Shown here one piece after another: positions 18,086 through 37,772 of a stretch of DNA of 64,000 nt (positions are counted from its first letter, which is position 1; every line of letters starts with the position of its first letter). The notes under the pieces were generated by a model that did no database searches, was not told where the DNA came from, and saw nothing but the letters and a program-made list of their open reading frames with translations. The DNA comes from Dehalococcoidia bacterium. GTDB taxonomy: Bacteria; Chloroflexota; Dehalococcoidia; SZUA-161. Location: the NCBI GenBank assembly GCA_011174795.1, contig DUEY01000002.1:11013-75012 (forward strand). Direction: 5' to 3'. Position numbers and translations under genes: made by a program.

Positions 18086-18269
18086 GCAGGCTACAACAGG
18101 AAAACGGCCCTGTAGCCTATGTGCCCTTCATTCAGGAGAGCAGGCTGCTTGAAGAAGACCCACACTGGCCGGATGACTTGACGCCAGCGAGCAGTAGCTT
18201 TAACATAGCACAACACCCCTATAATAATGATATGTGGCATCCTATTCAGGATGTAAAGAGAACGATAAG

Positions 18270-19067
18270 ATGATAATTGTAGGTGAGAAGATAAACACCA
18301 GCCGCCGGAGTATTGCGGAAGCCGTCGAGAAGCGGGATACTGACTTCATTGTCGGTGTGGCGAGAGAGCAAGCCGAAGCCGGCGCTAATTATATCGATGT
18401 CAATGCCGGAACTTTTTTAGAGCAAGAGGCTGATTGCCTCTGCTGGCTGGTCGAGACAGTACAGAACAGTATAGACCTGCCACTTTGCTTAGACAGTCCC
18501 AATCCAGCAGCACTATCCGAAGCAGCAAGGCGCCACAGAGGGGAACCGATGATCAATTCAATTTCACTGGAAGCAGACCGTTTCCAGTCCCTGCTCCCCG
18601 TGGTCACTTCCCAACCCTGTCATATCGTCGCCCTCTGCATGTCCGAAACATCAATGCCTATTACTACAGAGGAAAGAGTCCAGGTTGGTTCAGAACTCAT
18701 TAAGAAGCTTACAGACGAAGGTATTCCCCTTGGAAAGATTTATGTCGACCCATTGGTACAGCCTGTTTCCGTCGATATCCAAATGGGAATAGCTACGCTC
18801 AATGCTATAACGAGGCTTATGAATGACTTTCCCGGCGTTAACACCATTTGCGGCCTTTCCAACGTCTCTTTCGGGCTTCCGGAAAGACACCTGATCAATC
18901 GCAGCTTCCTGGCTCTTTGTATGGCGTCCGGCCTTTCTGCCGTTATTCTTGACCCGACTGATAAAAAACTCATGGCTACGCTCCTGGCCGTTGACATGCT
19001 TCTGGGACAAGACGAATACTGCGAAAAATACATAGATGCCTACCAGAACGGCACTATTGCTGGATAA
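18270..19067 (+). CDS. methyltetrahydrofolate:corrinoid methyltransferase (pterin-binding, MtrH/MeTr/AcsE-like)
   Basis: MIIVGEKINTSRR...GANYIDVNAG is the pterin-binding (DHPS-like) fold of MtrH/MeTr. Start moved to the MIIVGEKIN Met by analogy with the paralog at 34253-35062. Confidence 0.75.
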   Translation: MIIVGEKINTSRRSIAEAVEKRDTDFIVGVAREQAEAGANYIDVNAGTFLEQEADCLCWLVETVQNSIDLPLCLDSPNPAALSEAARRHRGEPMINSISLEADRFQSLLPVVTSQPCHIVALCMSETSMPITTEERVQVGSELIKKLTDEGIPLGKIYVDPLVQPVSVDIQMGIATLNAITRLMNDFPGVNTICGLSNVSFGLPERHLINRSFLALCMASGLSAVILDPTDKKLMATLLAVDMLLGQDEYCEKYIDAYQNGTIAG

Positions 19068-19108
19068 TAGCCATCCTTTTCCATTTGTACAGAAAAAGTT
19101 AAAGGGGG

Positions 19109-19753
19109 ATGAAAATGGGTGAGTATAAGGCATTAAACGGGGCTGTGCTCAAGGGGGATATCAATACAGCGACAGCGGAGATGCAAAAAGCCATAGATGC
19201 CGACAAAAACGTTCAGGATATCATCGACAACGGGCTCATTGCCGCCATGGACGAGGTTGGCGAGAGGTTCTCCAAAGGGCTGCTGTTCGTACCCCAGATG
19301 CTGCGCGCAGCCAAGACTATGCAGGAGTGCATGAAACTGATCGAGCCCCTTCTTCAGAAAGGCGATGTTACCCCCAAGGGAAAGGTGCTGATTGGCACAG
19401 TCAGGGGCGACCTTCACGACATCGGGAAAAACCTCGTTTCCATGATGATGGAGAGCGCAGGATTCATGATAACCGACCTGGGAGTGGATGTCCCCCCGGA
19501 GAAGTTTGTCCAAAAGGCACAAGAAGTGGAACCGGACATCGTCGCCATGTCAGCTTTGCTCTCCACCACCATGCCGGCCATGCCCCAGACCATCGAGGCT
19601 CTGGGCAAAGCCGGGCTCAGAGCCAAAGTCAAGGTGATGATTGGCGGAGCACCGGTTACCGAGAACTACGCCCATGAAATCAGGGCAGACGCCTATGCGT
19701 CCGATGCTGGTTCTGCCGTGAGCAAAGCTAAAAAGCTACTCGGTATTTCCTGA
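19109..19753 (+). CDS. cobalamin-binding corrinoid protein (MttC/MtbC-like)
   Basis: B12-binding DxHxxG motif (DLHDIGKN), N-terminal helical cap, Rossmann-like B12 domain. Confidence 0.8.
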   Translation: MKMGEYKALNGAVLKGDINTATAEMQKAIDADKNVQDIIDNGLIAAMDEVGERFSKGLLFVPQMLRAAKTMQECMKLIEPLLQKGDVTPKGKVLIGTVRGDLHDIGKNLVSMMMESAGFMITDLGVDVPPEKFVQKAQEVEPDIVAMSALLSTTMPAMPQTIEALGKAGLRAKVKVMIGGAPVTENYAHEIRADAYASDAGSAVSKAKKLLGIS

Positions 19754-19794
19754 GCAAGCTCAAAAAGATATCTCCGTCACAAAGGAGGAGAGCT

Positions 19795-21243
19795 ATGAAA
19801 TCATTAAATATCCCCACCTTTCTCCCCCGATTAAAAGTACTGAACCGAGAACAGGCGTTAGCAATACACCAGGCTGCTTTAGAAATCCTGGAAAAGACGG
19901 GATTTAAGATGGAGCACCCCGACGCCCATCAAATGCTTGTCGATGCCGGGGGCAAGGTTACCAATGACGGTCGGCTTACATTACCTGCTTACCTTGTTGA
20001 AGAGGCCTTAAAAACAACTCCGAAACAGATCGCACTTTATGACCAGAAGGGCAACAAAACGATGCCCCTGGTAGACGGCAATCCATTCTACGGCACAGGT
20101 TCGGACGCCACATTCACCCTGGACCTGGAGACCGGTCAACGTCGGCGAGCTGTCTTAAAAGACGTCGCCAATTTCGCCAGACTGGTGGACAACCTTGAAA
20201 ATATCTCCTTCGCCATGTCTATGGCCAATCCCGACGATGTTCCCGTAGAGGATATCTATGTCTACGTTTTTGCCGAGATGATTAAAAACATCAACAAACC
20301 CATCGTATTCATTGCAGACAGCGGCAGAGACATTGCCAAGATCTACGAAATCGCCTGCCTTGTGGCAGGCGGTGAAGAGGAATTTCAGAAAAAACCGTTT
20401 ATGCTCAATTACTCGGAAGCCATCAGCCCTCTGCGCTTCCCGCAAAACGTTATGGAAAAACTCATTTTCTGTGCCCGGAAAAAGATACCGATTTGCCTTC
20501 CATCAGGCTCCAATGCCGGAGGCGGAGCCCCGATCACGATTGCCGGTGCCATGGCTTTGGGGATCGCCGAGAACCTGGTCGGGCTCGCTGTCCATCAGTT
20601 GACCAATAAGGGGGCGCCTTTCCTTTTCGGTCCCAATGTAAGCACTTTGGATATGAAGTCCACCGTAGTTTCTTACGGCTGCCCTGAATGGAGTCTCAGC
20701 CAAGCTGCCCTCGCTGATATGCGTGATGAAATGTACGGCTTGCCCACCTGGGCCTATGCCGGGGCCTCAGATGCTAAAGTAATGGATGCCCAGGCAGGAG
20801 CCGAGGCCATGTTTTCCATTATCACCGCCATGCTCTCCCGCTCGAATTTGATTCACGATGTAGGTTTCTTGGAATATGGGAATACCTCTTCGCTAGAGAT
20901 GGTGACCATGGCGAACGAACTGGTAGCCATGAGCCGCTTTTTTACCGAGGGTATCCCTGTCAACGAAGGGACCTTAGCCCTCGACGTAATAGAGAGGGTG
21001 GCCACTGGTGGCCCCGGTTCCATCTTCCTCACAGACGATCACACCTTCGATTATTTCAGGGAGGCCCAGTTTCTTCCACAGCTTCTAGACCGCTCCCGAT
21101 ACGATTCATGGAAAGAGGCCGGAGCTATGGACCTCTATACAGTCTGCAATACCGAAGCAAAGAGGATACTCTCGGAACATCAGGTCGAACCTAAAACCGA
21201 TGAGGTGCTTAACGAAGTCGATCGAATCCTTAAAGGACGCTGA
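19795..21243 (+). CDS. MttB-superfamily (trimethylamine methyltransferase-like, non-pyrrolysine) substrate:corrinoid methyltransferase
   Basis: Full-length 482-aa TIM-barrel MttB-family protein with no in-frame amber codon. Strong SD AGGAGGAG. Confidence 0.85.
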   Translation: MKSLNIPTFLPRLKVLNREQALAIHQAALEILEKTGFKMEHPDAHQMLVDAGGKVTNDGRLTLPAYLVEEALKTTPKQIALYDQKGNKTMPLVDGNPFYGTGSDATFTLDLETGQRRRAVLKDVANFARLVDNLENISFAMSMANPDDVPVEDIYVYVFAEMIKNINKPIVFIADSGRDIAKIYEIACLVAGGEEEFQKKPFMLNYSEAISPLRFPQNVMEKLIFCARKKIPICLPSGSNAGGGAPITIAGAMALGIAENLVGLAVHQLTNKGAPFLFGPNVSTLDMKSTVVSYGCPEWSLSQAALADMRDEMYGLPTWAYAGASDAKVMDAQAGAEAMFSIITAMLSRSNLIHDVGFLEYGNTSSLEMVTMANELVAMSRFFTEGIPVNEGTLALDVIERVATGGPGSIFLTDDHTFDYFREAQFLPQLLDRSRYDSWKEAGAMDLYTVCNTEAKRILSEHQVEPKTDEVLNEVDRILKGR

Positions 21244-21257
21244 TACGAAGTAGAATC

Positions 21258-23306
21258 ATGGGAAATAGCCTGCCATTATACAGACCACTAACCCCGAAAG
21301 ATGTCCAGCACATCGACCAAGCTGGGCGCCGAATACTGGAACGCATCGGCATCAGTATCTATGACAGTAAATTCCTCGACATTCTGAAAGCAGCAGGAGC
21401 TCAGGTAGATTACGACAATCAGAGAGTACGCTTTCCAGGAGACTGGCTTGATGAAGCTCTGGGCAAAGCCCCCTCTCGCTTCACGCTATACTCTCGAGAT
21501 GGTCGAAATGACCTTCATCTAGGAGAAGGCAACGTCTACTTCACCAACGGAGGCCGGGTATTTCGAATTCTCGACATGGGAACAAGCAATTACCGCTACA
21601 CCATGATAAGACATGTGGCACGTACTGCCGCCCTCGTGGAGCACCTGGAGCACATTCGACTTTATATCATTGCCTGTCAGGCTCACGCTCTTGAACCTCA
21701 AATATATCATTTGAACGATTTTTTCCACGCCTTCAACCATACTACGAAACATGTAATGGGAGGCTGCGATAACCTGGCAGGCGCTGAACAGGTATGGGAA
21801 CTCGCAAGCTTTATCGCAGGAGGAGAGGGTAAACTTAAAAAAAAGCCCTTCGTCTCGGTAATCACAAATATGATAAGTCCCCTTACTATTGAGACGAAAG
21901 CACTGAATATACTCGACTTTTGCACGAAACATGGTATACCCACTACATGCGCACCTGCGCCTATCGCCGGAGCCACCTCGCCCGCAACCCTGGCAGGGAC
22001 ACTTGCCCAGATGCATGCTGAAGCCTTGGCAGGAGTTGCCCTGACACAGGTGTTCGCCCCCGGCGCCAAGGTGCTCTATGGAGCTGTTCCCACGATAATG
22101 GATTTGCGAAAAATGGACTTCACAATGGGCTCGGTGGAAATGGCGATGATGAACGCTGCCGCAGTCCAACTGGCGAAGCTCTACAACCTGCCTATCTATG
22201 CCTCGGCCGGAGTCACCGAGGCTAAAAGACCTGACATTCAGGCTGGCTTCGAAAAGACCTTTTCCGATTTGCTCGTGGCTATGGCAGGGGCGGATTTCGT
22301 CCACCTGGCTGCCGGAATGCTGGATTCAGGGAATACCATTTCCTATGAACAGTATGTCATAGACAACGAGATTATCGGAATGGTTCAGAGGATACTGGCG
22401 GGCATTAAAGTGAATAAGGGTACGCTAGGACTGGATATAATCGAGAAAGTTGGGCCCGGCGGGAACTATGTCACGGAAGATCACACCGTCGAACATATGA
22501 TGGATGAATTCTTCTACCCCGCGTTAAGCGTGCGATTAAACTTCGATATATGGGAGGAAAGGGGACGTCCCAGCATATTAAGCCGCGCTAAAGACAAAGC
22601 GCAAGAAATCCTGAAAGACAGCAAAGAAGGCCTCCTGGAACCAGACCTGGTCGCTGAGATAGAAAAGGCTTTCCCCGCTATACAAATGTCAATTACAAAA
22701 TCGCCGACCAGGGCCAAACAAGCTACACGTATTATAGCTTGCATGGTTTTCAAACCTGTCCTCGATCATCTTCAATTGGAAAAAAGATATCGTAACCTGC
22801 GTATAACCTACCTGCCAGCCAACCTGCATATGAACCCGCAGAAGTTAAAAAACTACCTGCTGAAACAGATAGCCGCAGCTGAGAAAAGAAACGAGCGAAT
22901 CATATGCCTTTACGGGGACTGCTTTCCAGATATTGACGACTTTTGCGAACAGCATGGAGCAATGAAAGCTCCTGGGACTCACTGCTATGAAATGCTTCTG
23001 GGGAGTGATCAATTCAAGCAGCTTACTGAAGAAACGGCAGGTACCTATTTTCTGGAGAAAGAACTTATTCTCAACTTCGACGAATTTTGTATTCAGCCCT
23101 TGGAACTCTATGATGAAGAAATGCGAAAATATTGCTTCGAACACTACAAGAGGCTGCTCTATGTGAGGCAGCCCTCAGACCCGGATGTCACGCCCCAGAC
23201 AAAAGAACTGGTTGAATTCTTAGAGTTGCCTCTGGAGATTAGAAACGCTGATTATTCAGATCTCGAGAGGAAGTTAATCAAGTTAATCGAGCCTAGACTT
23301 CTTTGA
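21258..23306 (+). CDS. MttB-superfamily methyltransferase fused to a C-terminal ~200-aa Cys-containing domain of unknown function (DUF1638-like by recollection)
   Basis: The N-terminal ~480 aa are colinear with the other MttB paralogs. Unrelated extra C-terminal domain (CLYGDCFPDIDDFC...HCYE). Confidence 0.8.
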   Translation: MGNSLPLYRPLTPKDVQHIDQAGRRILERIGISIYDSKFLDILKAAGAQVDYDNQRVRFPGDWLDEALGKAPSRFTLYSRDGRNDLHLGEGNVYFTNGGRVFRILDMGTSNYRYTMIRHVARTAALVEHLEHIRLYIIACQAHALEPQIYHLNDFFHAFNHTTKHVMGGCDNLAGAEQVWELASFIAGGEGKLKKKPFVSVITNMISPLTIETKALNILDFCTKHGIPTTCAPAPIAGATSPATLAGTLAQMHAEALAGVALTQVFAPGAKVLYGAVPTIMDLRKMDFTMGSVEMAMMNAAAVQLAKLYNLPIYASAGVTEAKRPDIQAGFEKTFSDLLVAMAGADFVHLAAGMLDSGNTISYEQYVIDNEIIGMVQRILAGIKVNKGTLGLDIIEKVGPGGNYVTEDHTVEHMMDEFFYPALSVRLNFDIWEERGRPSILSRAKDKAQEILKDSKEGLLEPDLVAEIEKAFPAIQMSITKSPTRAKQATRIIACMVFKPVLDHLQLEKRYRNLRITYLPANLHMNPQKLKNYLLKQIAAAEKRNERIICLYGDCFPDIDDFCEQHGAMKAPGTHCYEMLLGSDQFKQLTEETAGTYFLEKELILNFDEFCIQPLELYDEEMRKYCFEHYKRLLYVRQPSDPDVTPQTKELVEFLELPLEIRNADYSDLERKLIKLIEPRLL

Positions 23307-23350
23307 TAGTCAGAGCTTTTCAAACGAACCGTAGCCGGTCTTAAGCGGAT

Positions 23351-25306
23351 ATGGGAGTTAATATGAGGAAACATCAATTGGAAACGCCACAGCATGAAAA
23401 ATTTAGGAGAGGAAAACGCCCTATTGGAACCTCCGTGCTGAAAAAAAGTAGAACACAATACGTCTGGCTGAATGTTCTACCCGATGACCTCTGGCTGAAG
23501 GTTCGCCAGGGGGAAACTGTCTGGGGAGCTTTGAAAAGAGAAGGGGTTGAACTGGAAAGCGACTGTGGCGGACTGGGTAAATGCGGTAAATGCAAAGTGC
23601 GTGTCCTCTCTTCGATAGGGCCTCCATCTAAGGAAGAAGAAGAACTCCTCGATGAGGAGGAGTTGAAACAAGGCATCCGCCTCGCCTGCCGCACCGAAGT
23701 AGACAAAGACTTTGTGATTCATACCGAAGAAACCGATTTCGAGGCTGAGTATTTTCAGATTCTCAAAACCGGCCATCGGCCTTTTTTCCATACCCAGCCA
23801 CTTATAAACAAGCGGTTAATAACCCTGCCCCCAGATTTATTGGACGAGGGGATATCCGAGATGGACCGGATTAAAATGGTGATGGTCCCCGAATATCAAG
23901 ACCTTGTAGCCCCTATCCACTGTCTCCGTACGTTACCCGAAAGGCTAGATGCAACTGATTACCATGGAGCGGCAGTGCTCCATGAGAACTCACTGCTGGC
24001 CTGGCAAGACTGGGAGGAAGTGGACTGCCACTTCGGATTGGTCTACGACCTCGGTACCAGTACACTGGTGGGCAAGCTAATCAGTCTGATAGACGGAAGC
24101 GAAGTCGCCGTAGTCTCCTGCCTCAATAGCCAGATGAAGTACGGCTCAAATGTTATCAGTCGGCTCAAATACCTGCAGGACCATGCCAACGGCCTCGAAA
24201 GGTTCCATAACCTTCTCATCAATGACTTGAACCGCATCACTACACGCCTATTAAAAGCAGCCAATCTTCAGCCGAACGACGTTTTTATCGCCGTTGCGGC
24301 GGGTAACACCACCATGCAGCATTTTCTTCTTACACTGGACCCTTCAGGGATCGCCGAAGCGCCGTTCTCGCCTGTATTAACCGACGGGCTGATTGTGGGA
24401 GCAGCAGCCGTTGGCCTCGAATTGCACCCTGAAGCCCTCTGCTATGTGATGCCAACCAAATCCGGTTATATCGGCGGAGATCTAATCAGCGTCATCCTCA
24501 CCTCTGGAGCCTGGGAACAGGAGGATGAAATTATATTGGGGCTGGATCTTGGCACCAATGGAGAAATATTTCTCGGCAACCACAAGAGACTCCTGACATG
24601 CTCAGCTGCCGCCGGCCCTGCCCTCGAGGGCGCAACAATCTCACACGGGATGATTGCCAAGGCTGGAGCTATAGAAGGCGTCAGCGTAGAAGCGGACAAT
24701 GTGAGCTATCAGATCATCGGGAATATAAAGCCCAAAGGAGTTTGTGGGAGCGGACTGGTCGATTTAGTCGCAGTGTTGTTACATTGCGGCTATATAAACC
24801 ACGAAGGCCTGCTCCGTCCACCCCGTAAAAATAGAATAGAGAGCCTGGATTCAAAAATGATCAAGCGGGCAGGAGTTTATGAATTCCTCATCGCGTCCGC
24901 GGAGGAAAGTTATAGCAGTAGACCTATGTACCTCACGCAAAAAGACATTCGAGAACTCCAACTCGCCAAAGCTGCCGTAGCAGCCGGTATACAAATTTTA
25001 ATGAACGATATGGGCATCGTCACCGAGGACATCAAACACGTTTACCTCGCCGGTGCACTCGGTAATTATGTAGACCCGTTGAGTGCCATACGTACCGGTC
25101 TTATTCCTAGATTTAATCCAGAAATTGTCACGTCATTGGGCAACGCCGCCAGCACGGGGGCTTCAATGGCCCTTTTGTCCAAGAACTACTGGCGGATGGC
25201 TAACGAGCTTTCAGACTTCATCGAGCACGTTGAGCTTTCCTCTCGCCTCGACTTCAATGAATTTTTTGTCGAGAACATGGATTTTCCTAAAGGTAATATA
25301 TGGTAA
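23351..25306 (+). CDS. reductive activator of corrinoid enzymes (RACE/RamA-like ASKHA ATPase with N-terminal 2Fe-2S ferredoxin domain)
   Basis: N-terminal plant-type ferredoxin motif CGGLGKCGKCKV, followed by an acetate/sugar kinase-like ATPase domain as in corrinoid activases. Confidence 0.8.
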   Translation: MGVNMRKHQLETPQHEKFRRGKRPIGTSVLKKSRTQYVWLNVLPDDLWLKVRQGETVWGALKREGVELESDCGGLGKCGKCKVRVLSSIGPPSKEEEELLDEEELKQGIRLACRTEVDKDFVIHTEETDFEAEYFQILKTGHRPFFHTQPLINKRLITLPPDLLDEGISEMDRIKMVMVPEYQDLVAPIHCLRTLPERLDATDYHGAAVLHENSLLAWQDWEEVDCHFGLVYDLGTSTLVGKLISLIDGSEVAVVSCLNSQMKYGSNVISRLKYLQDHANGLERFHNLLINDLNRITTRLLKAANLQPNDVFIAVAAGNTTMQHFLLTLDPSGIAEAPFSPVLTDGLIVGAAAVGLELHPEALCYVMPTKSGYIGGDLISVILTSGAWEQEDEIILGLDLGTNGEIFLGNHKRLLTCSAAAGPALEGATISHGMIAKAGAIEGVSVEADNVSYQIIGNIKPKGVCGSGLVDLVAVLLHCGYINHEGLLRPPRKNRIESLDSKMIKRAGVYEFLIASAEESYSSRPMYLTQKDIRELQLAKAAVAAGIQILMNDMGIVTEDIKHVYLAGALGNYVDPLSAIRTGLIPRFNPEIVTSLGNAASTGASMALLSKNYWRMANELSDFIEHVELSSRLDFNEFFVENMDFPKGNIW

Positions 25307-27033
25307 GAAAAAATAAGAATAAACATCAAAGCAGTGTAACCATTGGTGTTGTCGGCGCCGGCGGCGATGGGGTTGTGGTGCTGGGCAGTTTCTTACAGAG
25401 ACTTGCTGCCTCACAGGGATATTTCAGCCAGATGCCCAGGTACTATGGTGCCCAGATTCGAGGTGGAAGCTCAGCAGTAAAACTGGAGTTGAATGCAGAA
25501 TCCCTATCACTGCCCAAAGATAGCCTAGACATTCTTGTATGTTTTAACTGGGATAAGTATCTGGAGTTTGAGCAGGAACTACCGCTTGCGGTTGATACCT
25601 TGGTAATCTACGAGACTAAACCCCAAGGCGCTATCAAATTGCCAGAGCCGTCATTTCAAGTCGATTTTTCTAAAAAAAGTAAAGAGGTAACCGGTTCAAC
25701 ACAAAACAAGAATATCGTAGCACTGGGATTACTGAAGAGAATTCTGGCCCTGCCTGATAAAAAGGTAAAGGTAGCTATTGAAACCGACATTGAATTAGAA
25801 CTGTTAAAGGCGAATCTTCCCGCCCTCGAAGCGGGTGAGCACTTATTTCCAGAATTGTCTCTCCCCGAGTTTAAATTAGCCCCGGCAACAGATAAGTCTG
25901 CTAAACTGATTATCCATGGAAATGCCGCTATGGCACAAGCTGCAATACACGCCGATTGCCGGGCTTTTTTTGGCTACCCCATTACACCCGCAGCAGAAAT
26001 TATGCAGGAAATGCAAAAGGAGCTTTCCCGGAATAAGGGCGTCTTCCTTCAAACAGAGGACGAGATTGCTTCAGCAGGACTTGTTATCGGTTCTTCCATC
26101 GTTGGTGCGAAGTCGATGACCTCCACCAGCGGTCCGGGACTCGATTTGATGACCGAGATGATGGGCCTAGCTTCTGCCGCTGAAATTCCGATGGTTATCA
26201 TCGATGTACAGCGCTGCGGGCCATCTACCGGCATACCGTCCAAGTCCGAGCAGTCAGACCTCAATCATGCCATCTACGGCGGTCACGGTGACGGACCCAG
26301 AGTGGTTCTGGCTCCCTACGACGTAGAAGGGTGTTACCGCCTCGTTATCGAGGGTTTCAGTATCGCTCAATATTTCCAGACCCCTGTCGTTATACTCTCC
26401 GATCAGTGGCTGGGACAAACCTTTCTCGCAATAAACAACAGATTCATGACTGAAGACTACCCAAGCCATGCAAGAATAAGCCCCGCAGTAAATGAGCTCG
26501 CTGATTATCACCGTTACCAGTTGACAGATAAGCTGATTTCGCCGATGGCAGCCGTAGGGGACGAAGGATTTACGTATCAAACAACCGGCCTTACTCACAA
26601 TGAGGAGGGGGCGCCGGCCTTCGATTTCGAGACCCATCAGAGAATGCATGAGAAAAGGTGGAGGAAACTGGCGCCGCTTTGCCAGAGGAATGATCTGGTT
26701 AAGGTTTTTGGTAAAGAGGAATCAAGCACAGGAATAATAACCTGGGGCTCCTCCGCTCAGGTTGTCCTGGAAACGGTCAAAGCCCTCGGGTTAGAGCATA
26801 GTCTCAAGCTTTGTGTACCAGAACTGGTCCACCCTCTACCAATAGGGGTCGAGAGGTTTATAAGCTCCATAAAAAAACTTCTAGTGGTCGAGATGAATTA
26901 TTCCGGGCAGTTTTATCATTATCTTCGGTCTCAAATAGACTTGCCCAAGAAAACCGAGCTCTACGCAAGGGCTGGAGGTCGACTCTTCAGCAGGAAAGAG
27001 CTTGCCCAACCCATAACAAAGGTGGCGAAATGA
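25300..27033 (+). CDS. 2-oxoacid:ferredoxin oxidoreductase, fused gamma-alpha subunit
   Basis: N-terminal gamma-like domain (GVVGAGGDG) and KorA/PorA core (GNAAMAQAAIHADCRAFFGYPITPA). Start overlaps the RACE stop by 7 nt (ATGGTAA). Confidence 0.8.
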   Translation: MVRKNKNKHQSSVTIGVVGAGGDGVVVLGSFLQRLAASQGYFSQMPRYYGAQIRGGSSAVKLELNAESLSLPKDSLDILVCFNWDKYLEFEQELPLAVDTLVIYETKPQGAIKLPEPSFQVDFSKKSKEVTGSTQNKNIVALGLLKRILALPDKKVKVAIETDIELELLKANLPALEAGEHLFPELSLPEFKLAPATDKSAKLIIHGNAAMAQAAIHADCRAFFGYPITPAAEIMQEMQKELSRNKGVFLQTEDEIASAGLVIGSSIVGAKSMTSTSGPGLDLMTEMMGLASAAEIPMVIIDVQRCGPSTGIPSKSEQSDLNHAIYGGHGDGPRVVLAPYDVEGCYRLVIEGFSIAQYFQTPVVILSDQWLGQTFLAINNRFMTEDYPSHARISPAVNELADYHRYQLTDKLISPMAAVGDEGFTYQTTGLTHNEEGAPAFDFETHQRMHEKRWRKLAPLCQRNDLVKVFGKEESSTGIITWGSSAQVVLETVKALGLEHSLKLCVPELVHPLPIGVERFISSIKKLLVVEMNYSGQFYHYLRSQIDLPKKTELYARAGGRLFSRKELAQPITKVAK

Positions 27034-27857
27034 GGGCACGTGCCGATTACAGGACAACTCTCAAGCCAGTCTGGTGCGCGGGCTGTGGTAATTTCGGCCT
27101 GCTCAACGCCCTAACCAAGAGAGTGCTGCCCGAGATCGGGATTCCCAACTATCAAACCCTTATCATTTCCGGCATCGGCTGCTCCTCGCGGATCCCTGCT
27201 TATATAGACACCTACGGTTTTAATAGCATACATGGCCGAGCACTGGTTATCGCACAGGGAGCGAAACTGGCAAAACCTGAGCTGACGGTAGTAGCCGTAG
27301 GTGGTGACGGTGATTTCTTCAGCATCGGAGCAGGCCATCTTCCCCACGCAGTGCGAAGAAACATCGATATCACCTGCATCATGGTCAACAACTTTGTCTA
27401 TGCCCTGACGAAAGGGCAGATTAGCCCCACAACACCACACCTGCTAAGAGGTGAAGGGCCTTTTCTTTCACTGGAACAGTACCCACCGGTCGACCCACTT
27501 CTGGATATGATCAGCTACAGCCTTTCAACCCGGGCTAGCTTCATCGCCCAGGGGATAACCACGGATATCCCTCATCTCGAATGGCTCATAAAGGAAGGGA
27601 TTGAACACAAAGGGTTTTCCTACATAAGTGTGTTCTCGCACTGCGTTACCTTCAATCCGCCGGAGCTATTCAGCACAATAAGAGCGAATGCACGCTATCT
27701 GCAAGAGGGCGAACTAGTCGAATTGCCAGCATCATCAAGAGAGAAGCCCTGGAGACACGACCTGAGCGACATAAGCCGCGCTCTACAACTGGCCCAGATC
27801 TCACTTCTCGATGAACCGCTTCTGGGGATATTCTTCCGAGGAAAAGAAGTCTATTGA
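27030..27857 (+). CDS. 2-oxoacid:ferredoxin oxidoreductase beta subunit (TPP-binding)
   Basis: CAGCGNFG and TPP motif GGDGDFF. ATGA start/stop overlap with the alpha subunit. Confidence 0.8.
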   Translation: MRARADYRTTLKPVWCAGCGNFGLLNALTKRVLPEIGIPNYQTLIISGIGCSSRIPAYIDTYGFNSIHGRALVIAQGAKLAKPELTVVAVGGDGDFFSIGAGHLPHAVRRNIDITCIMVNNFVYALTKGQISPTTPHLLRGEGPFLSLEQYPPVDPLLDMISYSLSTRASFIAQGITTDIPHLEWLIKEGIEHKGFSYISVFSHCVTFNPPELFSTIRANARYLQEGELVELPASSREKPWRHDLSDISRALQLAQISLLDEPLLGIFFRGKEVY

Positions 27858-27870
27858 AGCTGAAATTTCG

Positions 27871-28719
27871 TTATACAGTTACCTGCATGCCATCGTAAGC
27901 AAAGCGTATCCTCTTATCTTTTGACTCCAGGGCCTGATAGTCATCGTAACTGCGGTTCCAGTACTCCTCAAGGTGAACGAAGAGAACCTTCTTAGCCCTT
28001 ATGCGTCCAGCAAGCTCGAGGGTCTGCTCAAAGGTGTAGAGTGTCATCCTGGAGATATGATCGGCCGGATACCTGAAATTGTGTTTCAATCCCTCCTCGA
28101 ATATCCCCGGCTGGATAATCAACAGGTCGGCCTGCTGAACCTCGCCCCTGTGCTCAGGGAAGGGCTTGATATCGCAGGGGGCATAGACCACCTTGCAGCC
28201 CGACTGCTCGAAAACATAAATAAACGACAACTGAGAATCACGGTCAACCGGTATAGCAGTAACCTGAATATCTCCAATCCGGACTTTTTCCTGAAAGGTC
28301 TCCAGCCTGATAAAACCGCTCTCCTGGTAAAAGTCGAGCAGTGGCCCATACTGTGAGCGTATCTTCCTTAATGGCTCACGCAGCTCCTCGGGGAGCAGCA
28401 GGCAAATCTGCTTCTCTGGATAAGCACGCCAAGTACGAAAATCAAGCGAAATCTGTTCTACTACACGGAATCCCTCCACGTGGTCAGGGTCGAGATGAGT
28501 GAAAGTCAGGTAGTCGACACGACGTATAGCTGAACGGTTCAACAGTGTTATAATCTCAGCCGGGGTATCGATTAACAGGTTGATATCATGCAATAAAGCG
28601 GAGGGGCCTGCCCTAGCATAGGGAACACCCCTCTTCCTAGCTTCCCGGCAGACCCGGCAGCGGCACAGGGGCTTGGGGATGACCATACACCCCCCGGAGC
28701 CCAATATTGTGAATTCCAT
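27871..28719 (-). CDS. MBL-fold metallo-hydrolase
   Basis: Metallo-beta-lactamase motif THLDPDHVEG (HxHxDH-like). Confidence 0.7.
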   Translation of the reverse strand: MEFTILGSGGCMVIPKPLCRCRVCREARKRGVPYARAGPSALLHDINLLIDTPAEIITLLNRSAIRRVDYLTFTHLDPDHVEGFRVVEQISLDFRTWRAYPEKQICLLLPEELREPLRKIRSQYGPLLDFYQESGFIRLETFQEKVRIGDIQVTAIPVDRDSQLSFIYVFEQSGCKVVYAPCDIKPFPEHRGEVQQADLLIIQPGIFEEGLKHNFRYPADHISRMTLYTFEQTLELAGRIRAKKVLFVHLEEYWNRSYDDYQALESKDKRIRFAYDGMQVTV

Positions 28720-28767
28720 TAGGCCATCATAAAAGCGGTCTTACGGTTACCTCTCCCTATCACCCGC

Positions 28768-30357
28768 TCAGTGCACATGTTTCAAGTCGCCATCCATCGT
28801 GCCCCTCACCTTCTCCCTCTCCTCGGCAAAATCGAAACCCGTCCAGATTCCGATTGAACCAAGCACCGAGTCCTGAGGATGGTACTTACGGAAGATTTTA
28901 AAATAGTATGCCGCTTCCCGGCTGTTTATCTTCGCCAAAGGATTCTCAGCCTTGATGCGCTCGAAATCATCCTCACTTATTTCACTGTGAGCCAGCTTTT
29001 CCCCAAGGTCTTCGCAGCCCGCTCCCTGTGTGTACTGCACCTTGTAGCGCCATAGTATATCGTCGGGGAGGTAACCGGTATCTTCAAACGCCTTGCGCAG
29101 AATCCACTTCTCTATCCTATCCCCGACATATTCAGACTCACGAATCTTGAGCTCGGGAGGAATCTTCATAGCGAGGTCGACCATAGCTACATCCAAGAAA
29201 GGCACCCGTAACTCCAGGCTGAAGTACATCCCCATTCGGTCCGCACGCTGCAGGTTTATATTATGGAGATTGCCGATGCAGCGCCTCGCCTCCTTATTGA
29301 GAACATCAATGGGATAATGCTTCATATAGTGATAGCCCGTGAATATCTCGTCCGCCCCCTCACCTGTGAGCACCACCGTCACGTAATCGGCAGCCAGCTT
29401 GCAGGTGAAATAACAGGGAACGGCACAGCGTACAAGTGAAGGATCGTAGCTCTCAAGCTCCTTTATAACAATCGGCAGCGCCTCATAGTATTCATCCTCG
29501 GTAAATATCAACTCGTGATGTGTTGAGCCAATATGTTTTGCCGCAATACGGGAGGCCTTAAGGTCATCGCTCTCATCGCCGGATTCATCCTTCATGCCCA
29601 CCACGAAGGTGTGAAGATGAGGTATCTCTTCAGCAGCTATTGCAGCCACCAAGCTGCTGTCCAAACCGCCACTGCAGAAGGAGCCCACATGGATCTCCTT
29701 ATCCGACAACAACCTTTTCTTAACCGCCCGAATAAACGTTTCCCTGATTTTCATACAGGTCTGGTCTATATCCGTCAACATATGATCTTCGATAGGCGGA
29801 ATCTCATAGTACTGTACAAACCCCTCCTTAGGGGTGTAATAGTGCCCGGCGGGAAACTCATGACACTCCTCCACACCAGCCAGCGTCATAGCACCGAGTT
29901 CCGAGGAGAAATAAAGCTTGTCCTCAACATAGCCATAGTAGAGGGGTTTAATACCGATAGGATCGCGGGCCAGCATAAAATCATCACCATCGAAGATGGC
30001 AAATGCGAACATACCATCGAGTTCTTCTACACACCGAGGTCCTTTCTCTCGGTAAAGATGAAGAATTGATTCAGTATCCGACTGGGTCAGGAACTCGTAT
30101 TTAGAGATGAGCTTCTGCCGTAACTCCCGGTAGTTGTAGATTTCACCATTACAGATTATCCCCGTCCTTCCACCATTTACCAGAATGGGCTGATGGCCTT
30201 TAGCAACATCGACAATAGACAGCCTGGTGTGACCAAATACCGTGTTGTTGAAAGTATGGAGTCCGCGGTCATCTGGCCCTCGATGAGGCAGTGCGTCCAG
30301 CATTCGATTGATTGTCTTTTCGTCTCTGGTGCCAAAACAACCTGCTATGCCACACAT
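28768..30357 (-). CDS. asnB: asparagine synthase (glutamine-hydrolysing) family protein
   Basis: N-terminal MCGIAG Cys nucleophile, RLSIVD glutamine-binding motif, PP-loop SGGLDSS. Confidence 0.85.
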   Translation of the reverse strand: MCGIAGCFGTRDEKTINRMLDALPHRGPDDRGLHTFNNTVFGHTRLSIVDVAKGHQPILVNGGRTGIICNGEIYNYRELRQKLISKYEFLTQSDTESILHLYREKGPRCVEELDGMFAFAIFDGDDFMLARDPIGIKPLYYGYVEDKLYFSSELGAMTLAGVEECHEFPAGHYYTPKEGFVQYYEIPPIEDHMLTDIDQTCMKIRETFIRAVKKRLLSDKEIHVGSFCSGGLDSSLVAAIAAEEIPHLHTFVVGMKDESGDESDDLKASRIAAKHIGSTHHELIFTEDEYYEALPIVIKELESYDPSLVRCAVPCYFTCKLAADYVTVVLTGEGADEIFTGYHYMKHYPIDVLNKEARRCIGNLHNINLQRADRMGMYFSLELRVPFLDVAMVDLAMKIPPELKIRESEYVGDRIEKWILRKAFEDTGYLPDDILWRYKVQYTQGAGCEDLGEKLAHSEISEDDFERIKAENPLAKINSREAAYYFKIFRKYHPQDSVLGSIGIWTGFDFAEEREKVRGTMDGDLKHVH

Positions 30358-30426
30358 GGGTCTCGCCTTCTTAGCTTAGTCTACTCGTTTTTTGTTACGT
30401 CCATATTTCAAAGTTCAACGAACCGG

Positions 30427-31908
30427 TTATGCATTATCCAGGAAGAAAGCCGGCCTGAAAGGATCCCACCTGCCTACTAACCTATCGAAGGCAGGATCGG
30501 GGAATGTCTCCTTGAACATCCGGTAGTAATACAACTCCTCAACTGACGACAACCAGGGGGTATCCTCGGTCCTGTTGTGTTCTGCCAGGTCGATTGATGA
30601 GAGGTGCTTCTCAGCCTCCTCACGCATAGCATACGCTACACCAGAGCCCTGAGCGAAGAACCGCTTCGTCTGGTAGATGATGTGGTCGGGCAAACAACCC
30701 TCAAAGGCCTGTCGCAGGACCCACTTCCCCGTCTGCTCAGGGCCATGAATCTTGCAACTTAGTGGGATCTTCAGACAAAAGTCCATCACCCTTGCATCGA
30801 GGAACGGTGTGCGGCTTTCATACGAATTCGCAGCATTCAGTCTATCCAGCCGTTGTAGTGCTGTATTATGAGCAACATTGATAAGCTGGTCGACTATACT
30901 GGCGATCTCCTCAAGGTTTTTTCCCTGCCTGAACTGGCCGTCATACCCGGCTAAGAACTCATCAGCCCCTTCCCCAGTAAGAACGCACTTAGCATGCGGG
31001 CTGACAAAGCGCCCTGCCAAGAAATTGGCGATTGCACCGTGTACACAGCTTTCCTCATACATCTCCTGATGATAGATGGCCAAAGGCAGTATCTCGCTTA
31101 TCTCTTTTTCGCTAAACATCAAGATATGATGCTTAAGGCCAAGGTACTCCGTCACATCCTTTGCCAGCGGCAGGTCCTGCCCCTCCTCCATACTCACCGT
31201 AAAGCATTCGATATCCGGCTTTACCTCGTGGGCCATATAGGCAATAAGGCTGCTGTCCAGACCGCCACTCAGGAGGATACCTTTTACAGCGTTGTCCCTC
31301 ATCCTCTTTTCAGTTGCTTCCATTAAAAGCTGCTTTACCACTTTCTTGGCTTGCTCATAATCCTCGAAATCCGGTGTTTCGACGGCCTCGGAAGTCGGAT
31401 ACTTCTGGAATCCCAGTTCGCGGGAGTAAACGTATCCGGGCGGGAACTCCCTGACATCTCTAGAGATGCCCACCAGTGCTTTTGCCTCAGATGCAAAGCA
31501 CAGGCTCCCATCACTGTTATGCCCGTAGTATATCGGTTTAATACCAGCCCAATCACGAGCCAGTATTAGCTTGCCATTATCCGACACGGCACAGGCAAAG
31601 TCGCCGTTTATCTTAGCGGCAAAGCGGGTGCCGAACCTGACGTACAGGTCAAGCACAGCCTCAGCGTCGGCTTTAGTTCCCTTATCCGAATTGTAAACAC
31701 GCCCATCGAGAACGACCGCTACCTTGCCGTCAGAGGTATAATGGGAGCCATCCCTGCAGTCTGCACCCATATTCAGCTCATTGCAACCTACATTCACCTC
31801 GCCTTCGCGGCTCGTCCAAGTCTCGTGAGGGCCTCTGTGCTTGATCCGCTCAAGCATTCGGTCTAGCTCACCGTTATCAGCACCCTGAACTCCCGCTATT
31901 CCTGCCAA
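30427..31908 (-). CDS. AsnB-family ATP-dependent amidoligase with degenerate glutaminase domain (Cys1 replaced by Ala; beta-lactam-synthetase-like architecture)
   Basis: The N-terminus is MAGIAG (no Cys), and the glutamine-binding RLSI motif is replaced. The PP-loop SGGLDSS is retained. Confidence 0.75.
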   Translation of the reverse strand: MAGIAGVQGADNGELDRMLERIKHRGPHETWTSREGEVNVGCNELNMGADCRDGSHYTSDGKVAVVLDGRVYNSDKGTKADAEAVLDLYVRFGTRFAAKINGDFACAVSDNGKLILARDWAGIKPIYYGHNSDGSLCFASEAKALVGISRDVREFPPGYVYSRELGFQKYPTSEAVETPDFEDYEQAKKVVKQLLMEATEKRMRDNAVKGILLSGGLDSSLIAYMAHEVKPDIECFTVSMEEGQDLPLAKDVTEYLGLKHHILMFSEKEISEILPLAIYHQEMYEESCVHGAIANFLAGRFVSPHAKCVLTGEGADEFLAGYDGQFRQGKNLEEIASIVDQLINVAHNTALQRLDRLNAANSYESRTPFLDARVMDFCLKIPLSCKIHGPEQTGKWVLRQAFEGCLPDHIIYQTKRFFAQGSGVAYAMREEAEKHLSSIDLAEHNRTEDTPWLSSVEELYYYRMFKETFPDPAFDRLVGRWDPFRPAFFLDNA

Positions 31909-31931
31909 GAATCACCTCTTTCTAGGAGATT

Positions 31932-31961
31932 AATATATCTATGATATATCATAGATATATT
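31932..31961. promoter_or_regulatory. perfect 30-bp AT-rich palindrome (candidate operator) between the corrinoid-protein gene stop and the AsnB-like gene start
   Basis: taatatatctatgatatatcatagatatat is an exact reverse-complement match over 28-30 bp, about 24 nt upstream of the 31908 start codon. Confidence 0.5.
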
Positions 31962-31978
31962 TGATTCTACGCCCACGC

Positions 31979-32653
31979 CTACTGGTAGGCGTCCAGTACC
32001 TTAACAGCATCGAAGCCATCCACACAATAGGCATCCGCCCCTATCTCGCTGGCGTACTCATCGGACACCGCTGCCCCACCAATGAGAACCTTAACCTTGT
32101 CCCTGAGGCCACTCTCCTCCAGCGCCTTAATTACATTACCCATGACTACCATCGTGGTTGTCAGTAGAGCGGACAGCCCCAGATACTGAGGCTTCTCTTC
32201 CCTGACGAACTCAACAATCTTCTCCGTGGGCACATCTATACCCAGGTCATGCACCTCGTATCCCGCCCCTTTGAGCAAAATGGACACAATGTTCTTCCCG
32301 ATATCGTGTATATCACCCTGAACCGTGGCTATAGCGAATTTCCCCTTGGTCTCCACATTAGAAGCTTCCAGATGCGGCTTGAGCACATCCATGGCTGCGC
32401 CTACCGCCTCGGCAGAGGCAAGCATATCGGGGATGAAGTATTCCTTCGTAGAGAATTTCTCACCTACCACCTGCATCCCCGCAGTCAAACCCTCCGTGAT
32501 TATCACCTGCGGTGAGATACCCTTATCCAGAGCCTCCTTCGTCAACTCAAGAACACCGGGACCCGTGAGTTCCTCATCTATCCCTTCATCTTCCTCGGTT
32601 TTTCTTCCCTGGATAACGTTCTCCTTCATTGCCGCAATAATGTCCTCGCCCAT
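31979..32653 (-). CDS. cobalamin-binding corrinoid protein (second copy)
   Basis: DxHxxG motif (DIHDIGKN). Paralog of the 19109-19753 protein. Confidence 0.8.
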   Translation of the reverse strand: MGEDIIAAMKENVIQGRKTEEDEGIDEELTGPGVLELTKEALDKGISPQVIITEGLTAGMQVVGEKFSTKEYFIPDMLASAEAVGAAMDVLKPHLEASNVETKGKFAIATVQGDIHDIGKNIVSILLKGAGYEVHDLGIDVPTEKIVEFVREEKPQYLGLSALLTTTMVVMGNVIKALEESGLRDKVKVLIGGAAVSDEYASEIGADAYCVDGFDAVKVLDAYQ

Positions 32654-32655
32654 TT

Positions 32656-34197
32656 TTATCTCCTTTCCTCATATACGTTTAGTCTCGGCAACAAGCCGGG
32701 AATCTCCTGGAATATCTTAGCTGTTGTAGCCTTATCAATATGCTCTACCGGCTTCTCCAGGAGTTCCTGCATCCTGTCATATGCTATTTTAAATACGCTG
32801 TCCGTCTCCCCATCACCCTCAAAGGGATAGGGCGGCGAGAGTTGCCCGCTACGCATAACCTTGCGGATATAGCTGATATAAAGCTTCTGTGGTGTCGTTA
32901 CGACCTCCCGTATCTGCTTCAAGACCTCAGCAATCTCAGTTTCGTCAATACGCGGCGGCCTTAGGAAAAACTTAATCATCTGGAAGTGGGCATCATCCAG
33001 CACAGCCTGAAGAAGGCAGAAAACGGAATTGCAGTCAAGCAGACCGTATGCGCAGTGCAAGTACTGGGGCCCGCTCAAGGTAACCAATATGTCTGAGAAT
33101 AAACGCTCTATCGATGCTTGCTGTCCGGGCGTCTTCGTATCACAGACGCCCGCAGTCGAATAGTTAGGTATCCTGTAGAATCGCGCCATCTGGACGCAGT
33201 CGACATTGTACTGGCTGGTTTCAACAGCACCGTAGGAATCGCCGAGGGTATCCATGCGAGCCCGAACGGGGACGCTTCCATAAATGACCGGCGTACCCTT
33301 ATTTACCAGCTGACTCAAGGTTATACCCGCTAGAACCTCCGCGTTTATCTGAGCCATGATACCTGCTTCCTTGATAGGAGCGGTGCTCCCCGCCTGGGGT
33401 GACGAAGAAACCACCAGTGGCAGTCCCCTTCGGCAAATCTCGATAAATGTATCCGTAGTGTCCTCGACAAATTGCAGGGGGCTCTTGACCAGACAGGTGA
33501 TGAAGGAGATGATGGGATTCTCCCTAAGCTCTTCCTCCCCACCCACTATTATCTTCGCCATATTCACAACATTATCTAGTTGCTTCAGGCTGGTTAACCC
33601 CGACATAAAATGCTTGGTGTTATTATTCAAAGAGGCGAAATATTTATTGACGTCCTTATTCTCCTCTGTTATGTCCCTATCCTGAATGTTAACTGTACGG
33701 ATGTAGCCATCCACAGTCTCCAGATGCTCACAGACATGTGCTGACTTGCAGAGGTCAGCCACAGTACCGCGTCGCGGGTGGAACTCAGGCACCTGAATCT
33801 CCGTAGCAGGGTCGGATTTCTTCACATAGGTCGGGAAATCGACATCCAGCCAGATATTGGTTTCAGAGCCCGTGATAAAACGTACCCTTGGCTCTTCGCC
33901 ATCCAGTATCAGCATGTTCTCGGGATTCCTAGCGCCTAATTTAACCGTCTTGGGTGCGCTATCGAGGGCCTCGATAACTACCTTCTCCGGGATTCTCACC
34001 AGCCAGCACGGATGGTCGCTGGGGGAAACCGGCGTAACCTCCGCACCTTTGCCATCGAATATCTCAGCGGCCTCACGATTGAAAGACATCAGGCCAGGGT
34101 CGCTCAATATCTCTATGGAAGCCTGGTGAATCTGTTCCACCTGCTCTCTGGTCATCCTTTCGTAAGGCTTCTCAACTAAGATTCCTTCCCTAGGCAC
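32656..34197 (-). CDS. MttB-superfamily methyltransferase (non-pyrrolysine)
   Basis: 513 aa, colinear with the other MttB paralogs, uninterrupted ORF. Confidence 0.85.
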   Translation of the reverse strand: MPREGILVEKPYERMTREQVEQIHQASIEILSDPGLMSFNREAAEIFDGKGAEVTPVSPSDHPCWLVRIPEKVVIEALDSAPKTVKLGARNPENMLILDGEEPRVRFITGSETNIWLDVDFPTYVKKSDPATEIQVPEFHPRRGTVADLCKSAHVCEHLETVDGYIRTVNIQDRDITEENKDVNKYFASLNNNTKHFMSGLTSLKQLDNVVNMAKIIVGGEEELRENPIISFITCLVKSPLQFVEDTTDTFIEICRRGLPLVVSSSPQAGSTAPIKEAGIMAQINAEVLAGITLSQLVNKGTPVIYGSVPVRARMDTLGDSYGAVETSQYNVDCVQMARFYRIPNYSTAGVCDTKTPGQQASIERLFSDILVTLSGPQYLHCAYGLLDCNSVFCLLQAVLDDAHFQMIKFFLRPPRIDETEIAEVLKQIREVVTTPQKLYISYIRKVMRSGQLSPPYPFEGDGETDSVFKIAYDRMQELLEKPVEHIDKATTAKIFQEIPGLLPRLNVYEERR

Positions 34198-34252
34198 GTT
34201 ATTCCTCCTGATTAACTCAACAATTAGCAGAGCCCTGGTATCTATATCGCGG

Positions 34253-35062: not shown

Positions 35063-35078
35063 CTTTCTACACTCCCAT

Positions 35079-36521: not shown

Positions 36522-36528
36522 ATAGGTT

Positions 36529-37586: not shown

Positions 37587-37667
37587 TACTAAGTCAATAC
37601 TCACCACGAAGGTTCACACTTGCATTCCGACCTGATTTGATGTATACTAAAGTCAAACCGAATATGG

Positions 37668-37757: not shown

Positions 37758-37772
37758 GCTTCGAAGAAGAAA

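Follow-up and report, generated by a model that had tools for sequence, protein, structure and literature searches.

A predicted operon joining a RACE-family corrinoid activase to a KorAB-type 2-oxoacid:ferredoxin oxidoreductase in a Dehalococcoidia lineage

Reductive activases of the RACE/RamA kind sustain corrinoid methyltransferases in acetogens, methanogens, organohalide respirers and marine betaine degraders, and in vitro these enzymes are driven by artificial reductants. The reductant of RACE has been a long-open question, which the gene arrangement described here makes testable in a defined system, with nothing overturned. The arrangement was found in a 64,000-nucleotide stretch of a Dehalococcoidia bacterium (contig DUEY01000002.1 of assembly GCA_011174795.1, positions 11,013 to 75,012 of the forward strand; the whole of this stretch is called the window, and coordinates count from its first letter), where the gene for a RACE-family corrinoid reductive activase overlaps the first of two genes for a 2-oxoacid:ferredoxin oxidoreductase (OFOR). 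Genes of the window and of its relatives were identified by Pfam and NCBIfam profile searches. The conserved, predicted activase-OFOR operon is a concrete candidate for the natural electron donor of RACE in one lineage.

All of the families involved are known. The closest described activases are RACo/AcsV of Carboxydothermus hydrogenoformans (3ZYY, 4C1N) and the activators of O-demethylases, which have the same domain order as the window's activase and, like it, are presumed to reduce Co(II) corrinoid to Co(I) at the expense of ATP (PMC6739815). In that system the Co(II)/Co(I) couple of about -530 mV is brought to about -250 mV by activase and ATP, the Fe/S cluster of the activase has a potential of -330 mV, and for the physiological donor no more than a guess is offered, "e.g. 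ferredoxin or flavodoxin" (PMC6739815). The window's activase differs in that it would serve MttB-type methyltransferases rather than the corrinoid iron-sulphur protein, and several of its relatives carry a C-terminal pair of CBS domains. The methyltransferase side of the locus has its counterpart in the MtgB/MtgC/MtgA(D) betaine systems of Desulfitobacterium hafniense and Ruegeria/Phaeobacter (PMC5764234, PMC12478193), with which it shares a non-pyrrolysine MttB-family methyltransferase (MT1), a corrinoid protein, a pterin-binding methyltransferase (MT2), a Fer2+DUF4445 activase and DUF1638. In Phaeobacter, genetic evidence shows that B12 reactivation depends on the DUF1638 protein as well as on the Fer2+DUF4445 RamA-like protein (PMC5764234), and the two are induced alongside MtgBCD during growth on betaine (PMC12478193). 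Compared with the Mtg systems, the window has two MttB paralogues, a DUF1638 fusion and an appended OFOR, and all of its equivalog scores lie below their cutoffs.

For the OFOR, the closest structurally described enzyme is the 2-oxoglutarate:ferredoxin oxidoreductase (OGOR) of Magnetococcus marinus, MmOGOR (6N2N/6N2O), which likewise has a gamma-alpha fusion, a YPITP motif, a single [4Fe-4S] cluster and a GDG motif for thiamine pyrophosphate (TPP); the relationship is moderately close only, and MmOGOR works in the reverse tricarboxylic acid (TCA) cycle in a genomic context unrelated to corrinoid enzymes. The closest functional parallel comes from Thauera aromatica, where a two-subunit KorAB provides reduced ferredoxin for the ATP-dependent benzoyl-CoA reductase and also takes part in the TCA cycle, and korAB homologues sit in aromatic-degradation clusters (PMC9973337, citing Dorner and Boll 2002). 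The two arrangements are alike in clustering a two-subunit OFOR of gamma-alpha plus beta architecture, also active in central metabolism, with an ATP-hydrolysing enzyme that delivers low-potential electrons. They differ in that the acceptor here is a RACE-family activase and not a class I benzoyl-CoA reductase, in that the present system is known from genes alone, in that its cluster has no ferredoxin gene, and in that its electron demand would be catalytic and occasional instead of stoichiometric. NifJ-NifF-nitrogenase is a cluster-encoded module of donor and consumer of the same kind as KorAB-ferredoxin-benzoyl-CoA reductase. In both of these modules, as here, an OFOR is clustered with an ATP-dependent reductase, whereas the co-encoded ferredoxin or flavodoxin carrier is missing from the block and from the window. 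No description of an OFOR within a RACE or RamA operon was found in the literature searched, an absence that is not proof of novelty; the union of a RACE gene with a KorAB-type OFOR in one operon, with translational coupling in several lineages, is thus a combination not found in that literature, in line with the earlier sequence-only reading of this DNA, which had held such a linkage to be non-standard for described RamA systems.

Seven genes on the same (+) strand occupy positions 18234-27857, in the order methyl-tetrahydrofolate (methyl-THF) methyltransferase, corrinoid protein, MttB, MttB-DUF1638, activase, OFOR alpha and OFOR beta, with spacers of 41, 41, 14, 44, -7 and -4 nt. The activase open reading frame (ORF; 23351..25306, +, 651 aa) ends with a TAA at 25304-25306 and the OFOR alpha ORF (25300..27033, +, 577 aa) begins with an ATG at 25300-25302, the two sharing a directly read 7-nt overlap, ATGGTAA, at 25300..25306 (+). 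Because no other ATG, GTG or TTG occurs before the conserved GxGGxG motif of OFOR alpha, 25300 is its sole usable start; a Shine-Dalgarno-like AAAGGT lies 8-13 nt 5' of this ATG. A 4-nt overlap, ATGA (27030..27033, +), joins the alpha stop (TGA, 27031-27033) to the beta start (ATG, 27030), from which OFOR beta runs to 27857 as 275 aa; the ORF listing holds a longer, TTG-started version at 26811..27857. A convergent MBL-fold gene (27871-28719) comes next, and 13 nt separate its stop codon from that of OFOR beta. Short gene overlaps are frequent within operons, and the overlap at the activase/OFOR junction therefore represents tight packing that is not in itself unusual. The same junction was present in three independently assembled samples (ERZ27275860, ERZ27275891 and JGI 3300028897), each with both the 7-nt overlap and the downstream MBL gene, and it is therefore not an assembly artefact. 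A protein identical to OFOR alpha is on record in a metagenome-assembled genome of the Dehalococcoidia.

Upstream of the first gene, a promoter-like site, TTAACA-17-AATAAT (18200..18228, +), agrees with the consensus at 10 of 12 positions and contains TATAAT at 18220-18225; it is a consensus match only. The consensus scan found no further + strand promoter-like site in the block downstream of 18991-19020, a scan of the block found no canonical or convincing + strand terminator before 27857, and neither a promoter nor a terminator was found in the search of the activase/OFOR junction. A search for a cobalamin riboswitch upstream of the block was also negative. Taken from the sequence, this layout strongly suggests that 18234-27857 is co-transcribed as one operon. 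The sequence-only reading had proposed the same gene calls, both overlaps and an operon, all of which agree with the coordinates and domain searches, and it had named a terminator or independent promoter between the genes as contrary evidence; the intergenic space is zero, and the scan shows no such site.

Conservation of the neighbourhood, which that reading had put forward as a check, was surveyed in three sets of loci, centred on relatives of OFOR alpha in species-representative genomes, on metagenomic relatives of the activase and on individual OFOR alpha homologues, with homologues of all window genes placed in the loci by tblastn. The related set comprised 19 distinct loci, the window included, whose OFOR alpha shares 65% identity or more with that of the window. 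An activase gene lies directly upstream of OFOR alpha on the same strand in 12 of the 19 (hereafter linked loci). The junction is an overlap of 7 nt in the window, 4 nt in L043/L044 and 11 nt in L005, L038, L049 and L055, or a gap of 14 nt in L045, 27 nt in L047, 45 nt in L046, about 45-59 nt in L002, about 83 nt in L016 and 104 nt in L050. In one further locus, L003, the same methyltransferase-RACE cluster adjoins the OFOR alpha and beta genes convergently, on the opposite strand, as the product of an inversion that kept the cluster beside them; the remaining six (L001, L004, L041, L042, L048 and L051) have no activase upstream.

Wherever the contig of a linked locus is long enough, the full block is present (pterin methyltransferase, corrinoid protein, MttB, MttB, DUF1638, RACE, OFOR alpha and OFOR beta). 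The linked loci are deeply diverged, with most pairs 63-77% identical in OFOR alpha and 62-76% in RACE, and because the adjacency recurs in such diverged relatives it exceeds chance. Flanking genes differ at nearly every locus on both sides, with HhH-GPD, GAPDH, peptidase M24 or unknown genes upstream and MBL, NTP-transferase, ComEA, ADH or transposase HTH genes downstream. The block has thus been kept as a unit through the reshuffling of its surroundings, a pattern characteristic of an operon held together by selection or of genes that rely on one common promoter.

Two apparent variants among these loci were rejected. RACE-OFOR gaps of 400-585 nt in L002, L005 and L038, which could have meant uncoupling or room for a ferredoxin gene, in fact encode CBS domains that lengthen the activase at its C-terminus, and in all three loci the lengthened gene runs up to or into the start of the OFOR. 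L050, from a 2.79-Mb metagenome-assembled genome (MAG) labelled as a complete chromosome, had appeared to be a stand-alone RACE-OFOR alpha-beta unit without methyltransferases; a run of N (about 7257-7358) at the ftsK junction cuts the activase N-terminus, and the upstream content of L050 can therefore not be deduced. As a separate observation, the OFOR alpha ORF of L016 (9986-11011) breaks off after 341 aa, probably because of a frameshift, and synteny claims from the L050 and L016 MAG chromosomes need caution given these defects at the locus itself. The 83-104 nt spacer of L016 and L050 contains a hairpin that lacks a U-tract (z-score -1.6). In L004, positions 1-880, 5' of the OFOR, hold several copies of a unit of about 150 nt, and more than one frame of this array reads as a repeated peptide (…GFVHPIRERGLRGPIVDQSRFCSATPASPYGTG…).

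The activase (23351..25306, +) belongs to the RACE family and is of the RACo type, scoring 263.8 bits with Pfam RACo_C_ter, 159.1 bits with Raco_middle and 38.5 bits with Fer2 (cutoff 21); an N-terminal [2Fe-2S] ferredoxin domain is followed by the RACo middle domain and the ASKHA ATPase domain. Its closest solved relative is RACo 3ZYY of Carboxydothermus (312 bits, residues 44-643), in an alignment that spans the DxGT(S/T)T and DxGTNGE motifs. The [2Fe-2S] cysteines align (CGGLGKCGKCKV...LACRT in the activase, CGGAGTCGKCLV...LACQT in 3ZYY), as do the ASKHA phosphate motifs (DLGTSTLVG and DLGTNGEI in the activase, DIGTTTVVV and DIGTNGEM in 3ZYY). The earlier description of this protein as RACE/RamA-like therefore holds for the RACE family and not for RamA proper, the architecture being that of RACo/AcsV: the RamA model TIGR04270 gives 130.7 bits against a cutoff of 500. 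The AcsV equivalog NF040756 gives 383 bits against a cutoff of 800, so that the protein is related to AcsV without being its equivalog. RamA itself reportedly binds two [4Fe-4S] clusters. From its operon context, with a corrinoid protein and DUF1638, the activase is presumed to carry out an ATP-dependent one-electron reduction of a protein-bound Co(II) corrinoid.

OFOR alpha (25300..27033, +) is KorA-like and carries an N-terminal gamma domain, with Pfam POR at residues 21-179 (65.8 bits) and POR_N at residues 214-451 (173.9 bits); it reaches 489.9 bits with TIGR03710 (cutoff 482.75), and its YPITP motif, in GYPITPAAEI, aligns with AYPITPATEV of 6N2N_A. OFOR beta (27030..27857, +) is a KorB-like TPP subunit with a single [4Fe-4S] cluster (Pfam TPP_enzyme_C, 84.1 bits), in which WCAGCG, GIGCSSR, GGDGD and SHCVTFN align with the cluster cysteines and TPP motif of 6N2N_B; its NCBIfam scores remain under their cutoffs (NF008820, 244.5; TIGR02177, 220.1 against 261.9). 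The Magnetococcus OGOR 6N2N is the closest solved structure for both subunits, at 324.7 bits for A and 192.6 bits for B. Residues 5-214 of beta match 6N2N_B and residues 4-226 match the NCBIfam profile, leaving the last 50 or so residues outside the alignments. Pfam gave no Fer4 match in either subunit, that is, no delta domain of the 2x[4Fe-4S] ferredoxin-like kind, and the enzyme with its gamma-alpha fusion, YPITP motif and single-cluster beta fits the two-subunit KorAB, or alpha-beta, type.

No NCBIfam equivalog model passes to assign the OFOR a substrate. Judged by homology and neighbouring genes, it is probably a KorAB-like 2-oxoglutarate enzyme that makes succinyl-CoA, because its unlinked orthologues adjoin succinyl-CoA genes and its best structural relative is an OGOR; we infer this substrate weakly. 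In L042 the OFOR is preceded by the beta and alpha subunits of succinate-CoA ligase (sucCD), both above their NCBIfam cutoffs, in L041 it is followed by methylmalonyl-CoA epimerase and the B12-binding subunit of the mutase, and in L048 it adjoins CoA-transferases and an acyl-CoA dehydrogenase.

In the proposed mechanism, the OFOR would oxidise a 2-oxoacid with CoA and release electrons at about -500 mV, these electrons would reach the [2Fe-2S] domain of the activase either through a ferredoxin encoded elsewhere or directly, and the activase would spend ATP to place one electron on the inactive Co(II) corrinoid protein, restoring Co(I). The preferred reading, to which a probability of roughly 40% is attached, is that the OFOR may keep the [2Fe-2S] domain of the activase reduced while doing its central-metabolic job, which by analogy with the Thauera KorAB-benzoyl-CoA reductase pair is the most economical account. 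It is favoured by the tight packing of the genes, by the recurrence of the activase-OFOR pair amid reshuffled surroundings, by the survival of the pair through the inversion in L003, by the second adjacency in L042 described below and by an operon order in which DUF1638 and RACE, the repair genes, immediately precede the OFOR; and, since the potential of the OFOR lies below that of the -330 mV cluster, reduction of the activase by it would be thermodynamically downhill. If true, electron supply by the OFOR would extend the principle of a low-potential electron generator encoded beside an ATP-driven consumer, as in KorAB/benzoyl-CoA reductase and NifJ/nitrogenase.

Several results weigh against electron supply by the OFOR. 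A donor at -500 mV is more than the -330 mV Fe/S cluster of the activase requires. No ferredoxin or flavodoxin gene was found in the operon, and the [4Fe-4S] ferredoxin motif CxxCxxCxxxC[PAG] is absent from all six frames of the 64-kb window. Corrinoid reactivation consumes only occasional single electrons, and stoichiometric expression of an OFOR for reactivation alone seems excessive. RACE-type activases work without a linked OFOR, including in aerobic roseobacters (PMC12478193). The linkage is also labile and narrowly distributed: six of the 19 close orthologues are unlinked, including L041 and L042, the two closest homologues of the window's OFOR (78% and 77%), and L001; in L039/L037 and L040, two orthologous methyltransferase-RACE clusters are not followed by any OFOR; and no RACE gene was found near the OFOR in 10 loci of sister Dehalococcoidia clades (60-65% identity) or in 19 loci with distant OFORs, with flanks of up to 10 kb where the contig allowed. 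Separately, the OFOR-less locus L039 encodes two flavodoxins (12113-12622 and 13432-13947, +) 2-3.5 kb downstream of its cluster and not adjacent to it, which could be an alternative electron donor.

The sequence-only reading had spoken of a dedicated electron source, and this part of it did not stand. In a neighbour-joining tree, of which only the shallow nodes (99-100%) and the interspersion were used, linked OFORs are scattered among unlinked ones within a single clade and form no clade of their own, a further point against the preferred reading; deep-node bootstraps were implausibly low, probably through an artefact of rooting and clade matching. The unlinked OFOR of L001 is 90% identical to the linked one of L043, the two grouping at 100% bootstrap and the window joining them at 99%. 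Because of this interspersion there is no dedicated paralogue, and with its closest relatives beside succinyl-CoA-type genes the OFOR looks like the lineage's general KorAB-type enzyme, recruited into the operon and also serving central metabolism. As a gauge of co-inheritance, pairwise identities of RACE and OFOR alpha across nine linked loci correlated with r = 0.22 (Mantel p ~0.18), a value that says little either way, since the star-like phylogeny leaves little variance.

A rival explanation, judged unlikely, is that the OFOR is co-expressed for the central carbon and redox needs of methyl-group metabolism and not for supply of the activase. It might then run in the reductive, carboxylating direction, as a 2-oxoglutarate or pyruvate synthase and ferredoxin sink that assimilates carbon during growth on methylated amines, or serve as an oxidative TCA-branch enzyme, with RACE merely the last gene of the methyltransferase cluster. 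RACE is indeed always the terminal gene of that cluster, so that adjacency to RACE is inseparable from adjacency to the cluster; the neighbours of the OFOR in L042, L041 and L048 belong to central acyl-CoA metabolism; 6N2N is a CO2-fixing, reverse-TCA enzyme; and the island is rich in methyltransferases, with a second cluster at 31979-37203, which would embed the OFOR among methylotrophy genes generally. Metabolic co-regulation is nevertheless hard to square with a 2-oxoglutarate-specific enzyme, which would have no obvious direct tie to methyl-THF/acetyl-CoA flux, and no other central-metabolism gene (carbon monoxide dehydrogenase/acetyl-CoA synthase, MetF or FolD) accompanies the block.

Locus L042 also bears on this choice. 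It has no methyltransferase operon upstream of the OFOR. Roughly 100 nt past the end of OFOR beta, and in the same orientation, begins a RACE-family paralogue with Fer2, RACo_linker and RACo_middle domains (6164-7198, +), which shares about 29% identity with the window's activase and is truncated at the contig edge. This is a second RACE-OFOR adjacency, independent of the inherited operon, that pairs the OFOR with an activase and not with MttB, and the pairing with a different RACE paralogue and no MttB between fits a RACE-specific link better than it fits co-regulation with methyl-group metabolism. L042 is a single case, and given several RACE paralogues per genome a chance origin could, by rough estimate, be expected at the few-percent level.

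A third account, considered fairly improbable, denies any functional link: a methyltransferase-RACE cassette would have landed upstream of a housekeeping korAB in the ancestor of this Dehalococcoidia subclade, after which korAB lost its own promoter, hence the overlaps, and depended on read-through, as in a neutral ratchet, until another promoter was captured. The interspersion of linked and unlinked OFORs as close as the 90% identical pair L001/L043, the restriction of linkage to one subclade and the OFOR-less clusters of L039 and L040 all favour this account; L003 shows the pair working convergently, that is, not co-transcribed; and many MttB/RACE clusters per genome, with two methyltransferase clusters in the window alone, raise the odds of such an adjacency. 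Gene order decays outside operons, however, and retention in 12 of 19 loci at about 63-77% identity with both flanks reshuffled exceeds usual neutral synteny at this divergence; the second, independent adjacency in L042, of another geometry, is likewise at odds with neutrality. If the link is merely regulatory or neutral, the arrangement is an ordinary operon variant.

The junction itself supplies a further argument against neutrality, since a pair of CBS domains stands exactly at the RACE/OFOR junction in six related loci, suggesting that the junction is under selection. In five of these the pair forms a C-terminal extension of an activase of about 795-801 aa (L002:2105-4492, L005:7543-9948, L038:6182-8587, L047:6577-8973 and L055:4498-6879), and in L049 (8568-9011) it is a free ORF of 147 aa with a stop codon that overlaps the beginning of OFOR alpha. 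Two activase genes stand in tandem in L005 and L038, with the CBS pair only on the second, and the window's activase has none. The CBS pair may sense adenylate or S-adenosylmethionine (SAM) for the repair module or for the OFOR.

A stronger form of the electron-supply reading, in which the ferredoxin-less OFOR would dock directly on the tethered [2Fe-2S] domain of the activase, is a long shot; the two would then form a self-contained, 2-oxoacid-powered and ATP-boosted corrinoid-repair machine, gated by adenylate-sensing CBS domains in half of the linked lineages. If direct docking were true, it would provide the first physiological electron source for a RACE enzyme and the first protein-domain acceptor for an OFOR.

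The first four genes of the block would encode MttB-type methyl transfer from a quaternary amine or methylamine, with two MT1 paralogues, a corrinoid protein and a methyl-THF MT2, and DUF1638 together with the RACo-type ATP-dependent activase would form the cofactor-repair module. The methyl-THF:corrinoid methyltransferase (MT2, pterin-binding; 18234..19067, +) scores 74.3 bits with Pfam Pterin_bind and 331.5 bits with NCBIfam NF005719 (cutoff 259); the latter match begins at residue 13, and the true start is likely the ATG at 18270. The MtgC/MtbC-like corrinoid protein (19109..19753, +; Pfam B12-binding 95.4 bits, B12-binding_2 69.7 bits) carries the motif GDLHDIGKN and has MtgC as its top NCBIfam match, at 203 bits and under the cutoff. 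The first MttB-family methyltransferase (19795..21243, +) scores 284.3 bits with Pfam MTTB and 373 bits with TIGR02369, below the cutoff of 525, and the second (21258..23306, +) scores 362.5 bits with MTTB and 104 bits with DUF1638, which forms its C-terminal part (residues 519-671). DUF1638 is fused to the second MttB in the window and in its closest relative here, L036, and is a separate gene in L043, L045, L046, L047, L049 and L055. Both MttB ORFs are uninterrupted, with no in-frame UAG, and hence non-pyrrolysine; with an amber-free MT1, a corrinoid protein and a methyl-THF MT2, the block has the components of a non-pyrrolysine, MtgB-like MttB system. The operon thereby marks a widespread, uncultured Dehalococcoidia group as likely users of methylated amines.

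The presence of two different MttB paralogues in every version of the block also suits the idea that the OFOR catabolises the carbon skeleton of the demethylated substrate, for example from an amino-acid betaine, stripped of all its methyl groups by the two MttB enzymes and deaminated, through a 2-oxoacid to an acyl-CoA for ATP, which is rated very improbable. Two-subunit OFORs can be broad-range, the relatives of solved structure include the Sulfolobus enzymes 5B46/5B48, and the want of a passing equivalog model leaves the substrate free for such a role. The conserved block, on the other hand, includes no aminotransferase, amino-acid dehydrogenase, transporter or acyl-CoA-utilising gene, and the OFOR orthologue is also found without methyltransferase genes, in succinyl-CoA contexts.

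The second corrinoid methyltransferase cluster of the window (31979-37203, -) converges on the OFOR and encodes a MetH-activation-domain-like protein (36529-37203), an MttB, a pterin methyltransferase, a further MttB and a corrinoid protein. It contains no RACE gene and may rely on SAM-dependent reactivation. It is followed, at 27871-31908, by two asparagine-synthase paralogues and the MBL-fold gene, and its arrangement is also present downstream of the OFOR in L001 and L050. An Rfam PYLIS_3 match (53.6 bits, gathering score 38; 35459-35558, -) falls inside a 503-aa MttB ORF of this cluster without in-frame UAG and is probably conserved coding sequence and not a functional PYLIS element. The methyltransferase/OFOR island as a whole (18000-37000) has a G+C content of 0.48-0.52, against 0.52-0.59 in the flank at 1-18 kb and 0.53-0.57 at 52-64 kb, a difference that could reflect gene-family composition or acquisition of the island. 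An ordinary TPP riboswitch (70.9 bits; 37665-37767, +) stands before thiC and thi4 (37717-39935), genes 10 kb from the OFOR, and is mentioned solely because TPP is the cofactor of the OFOR.

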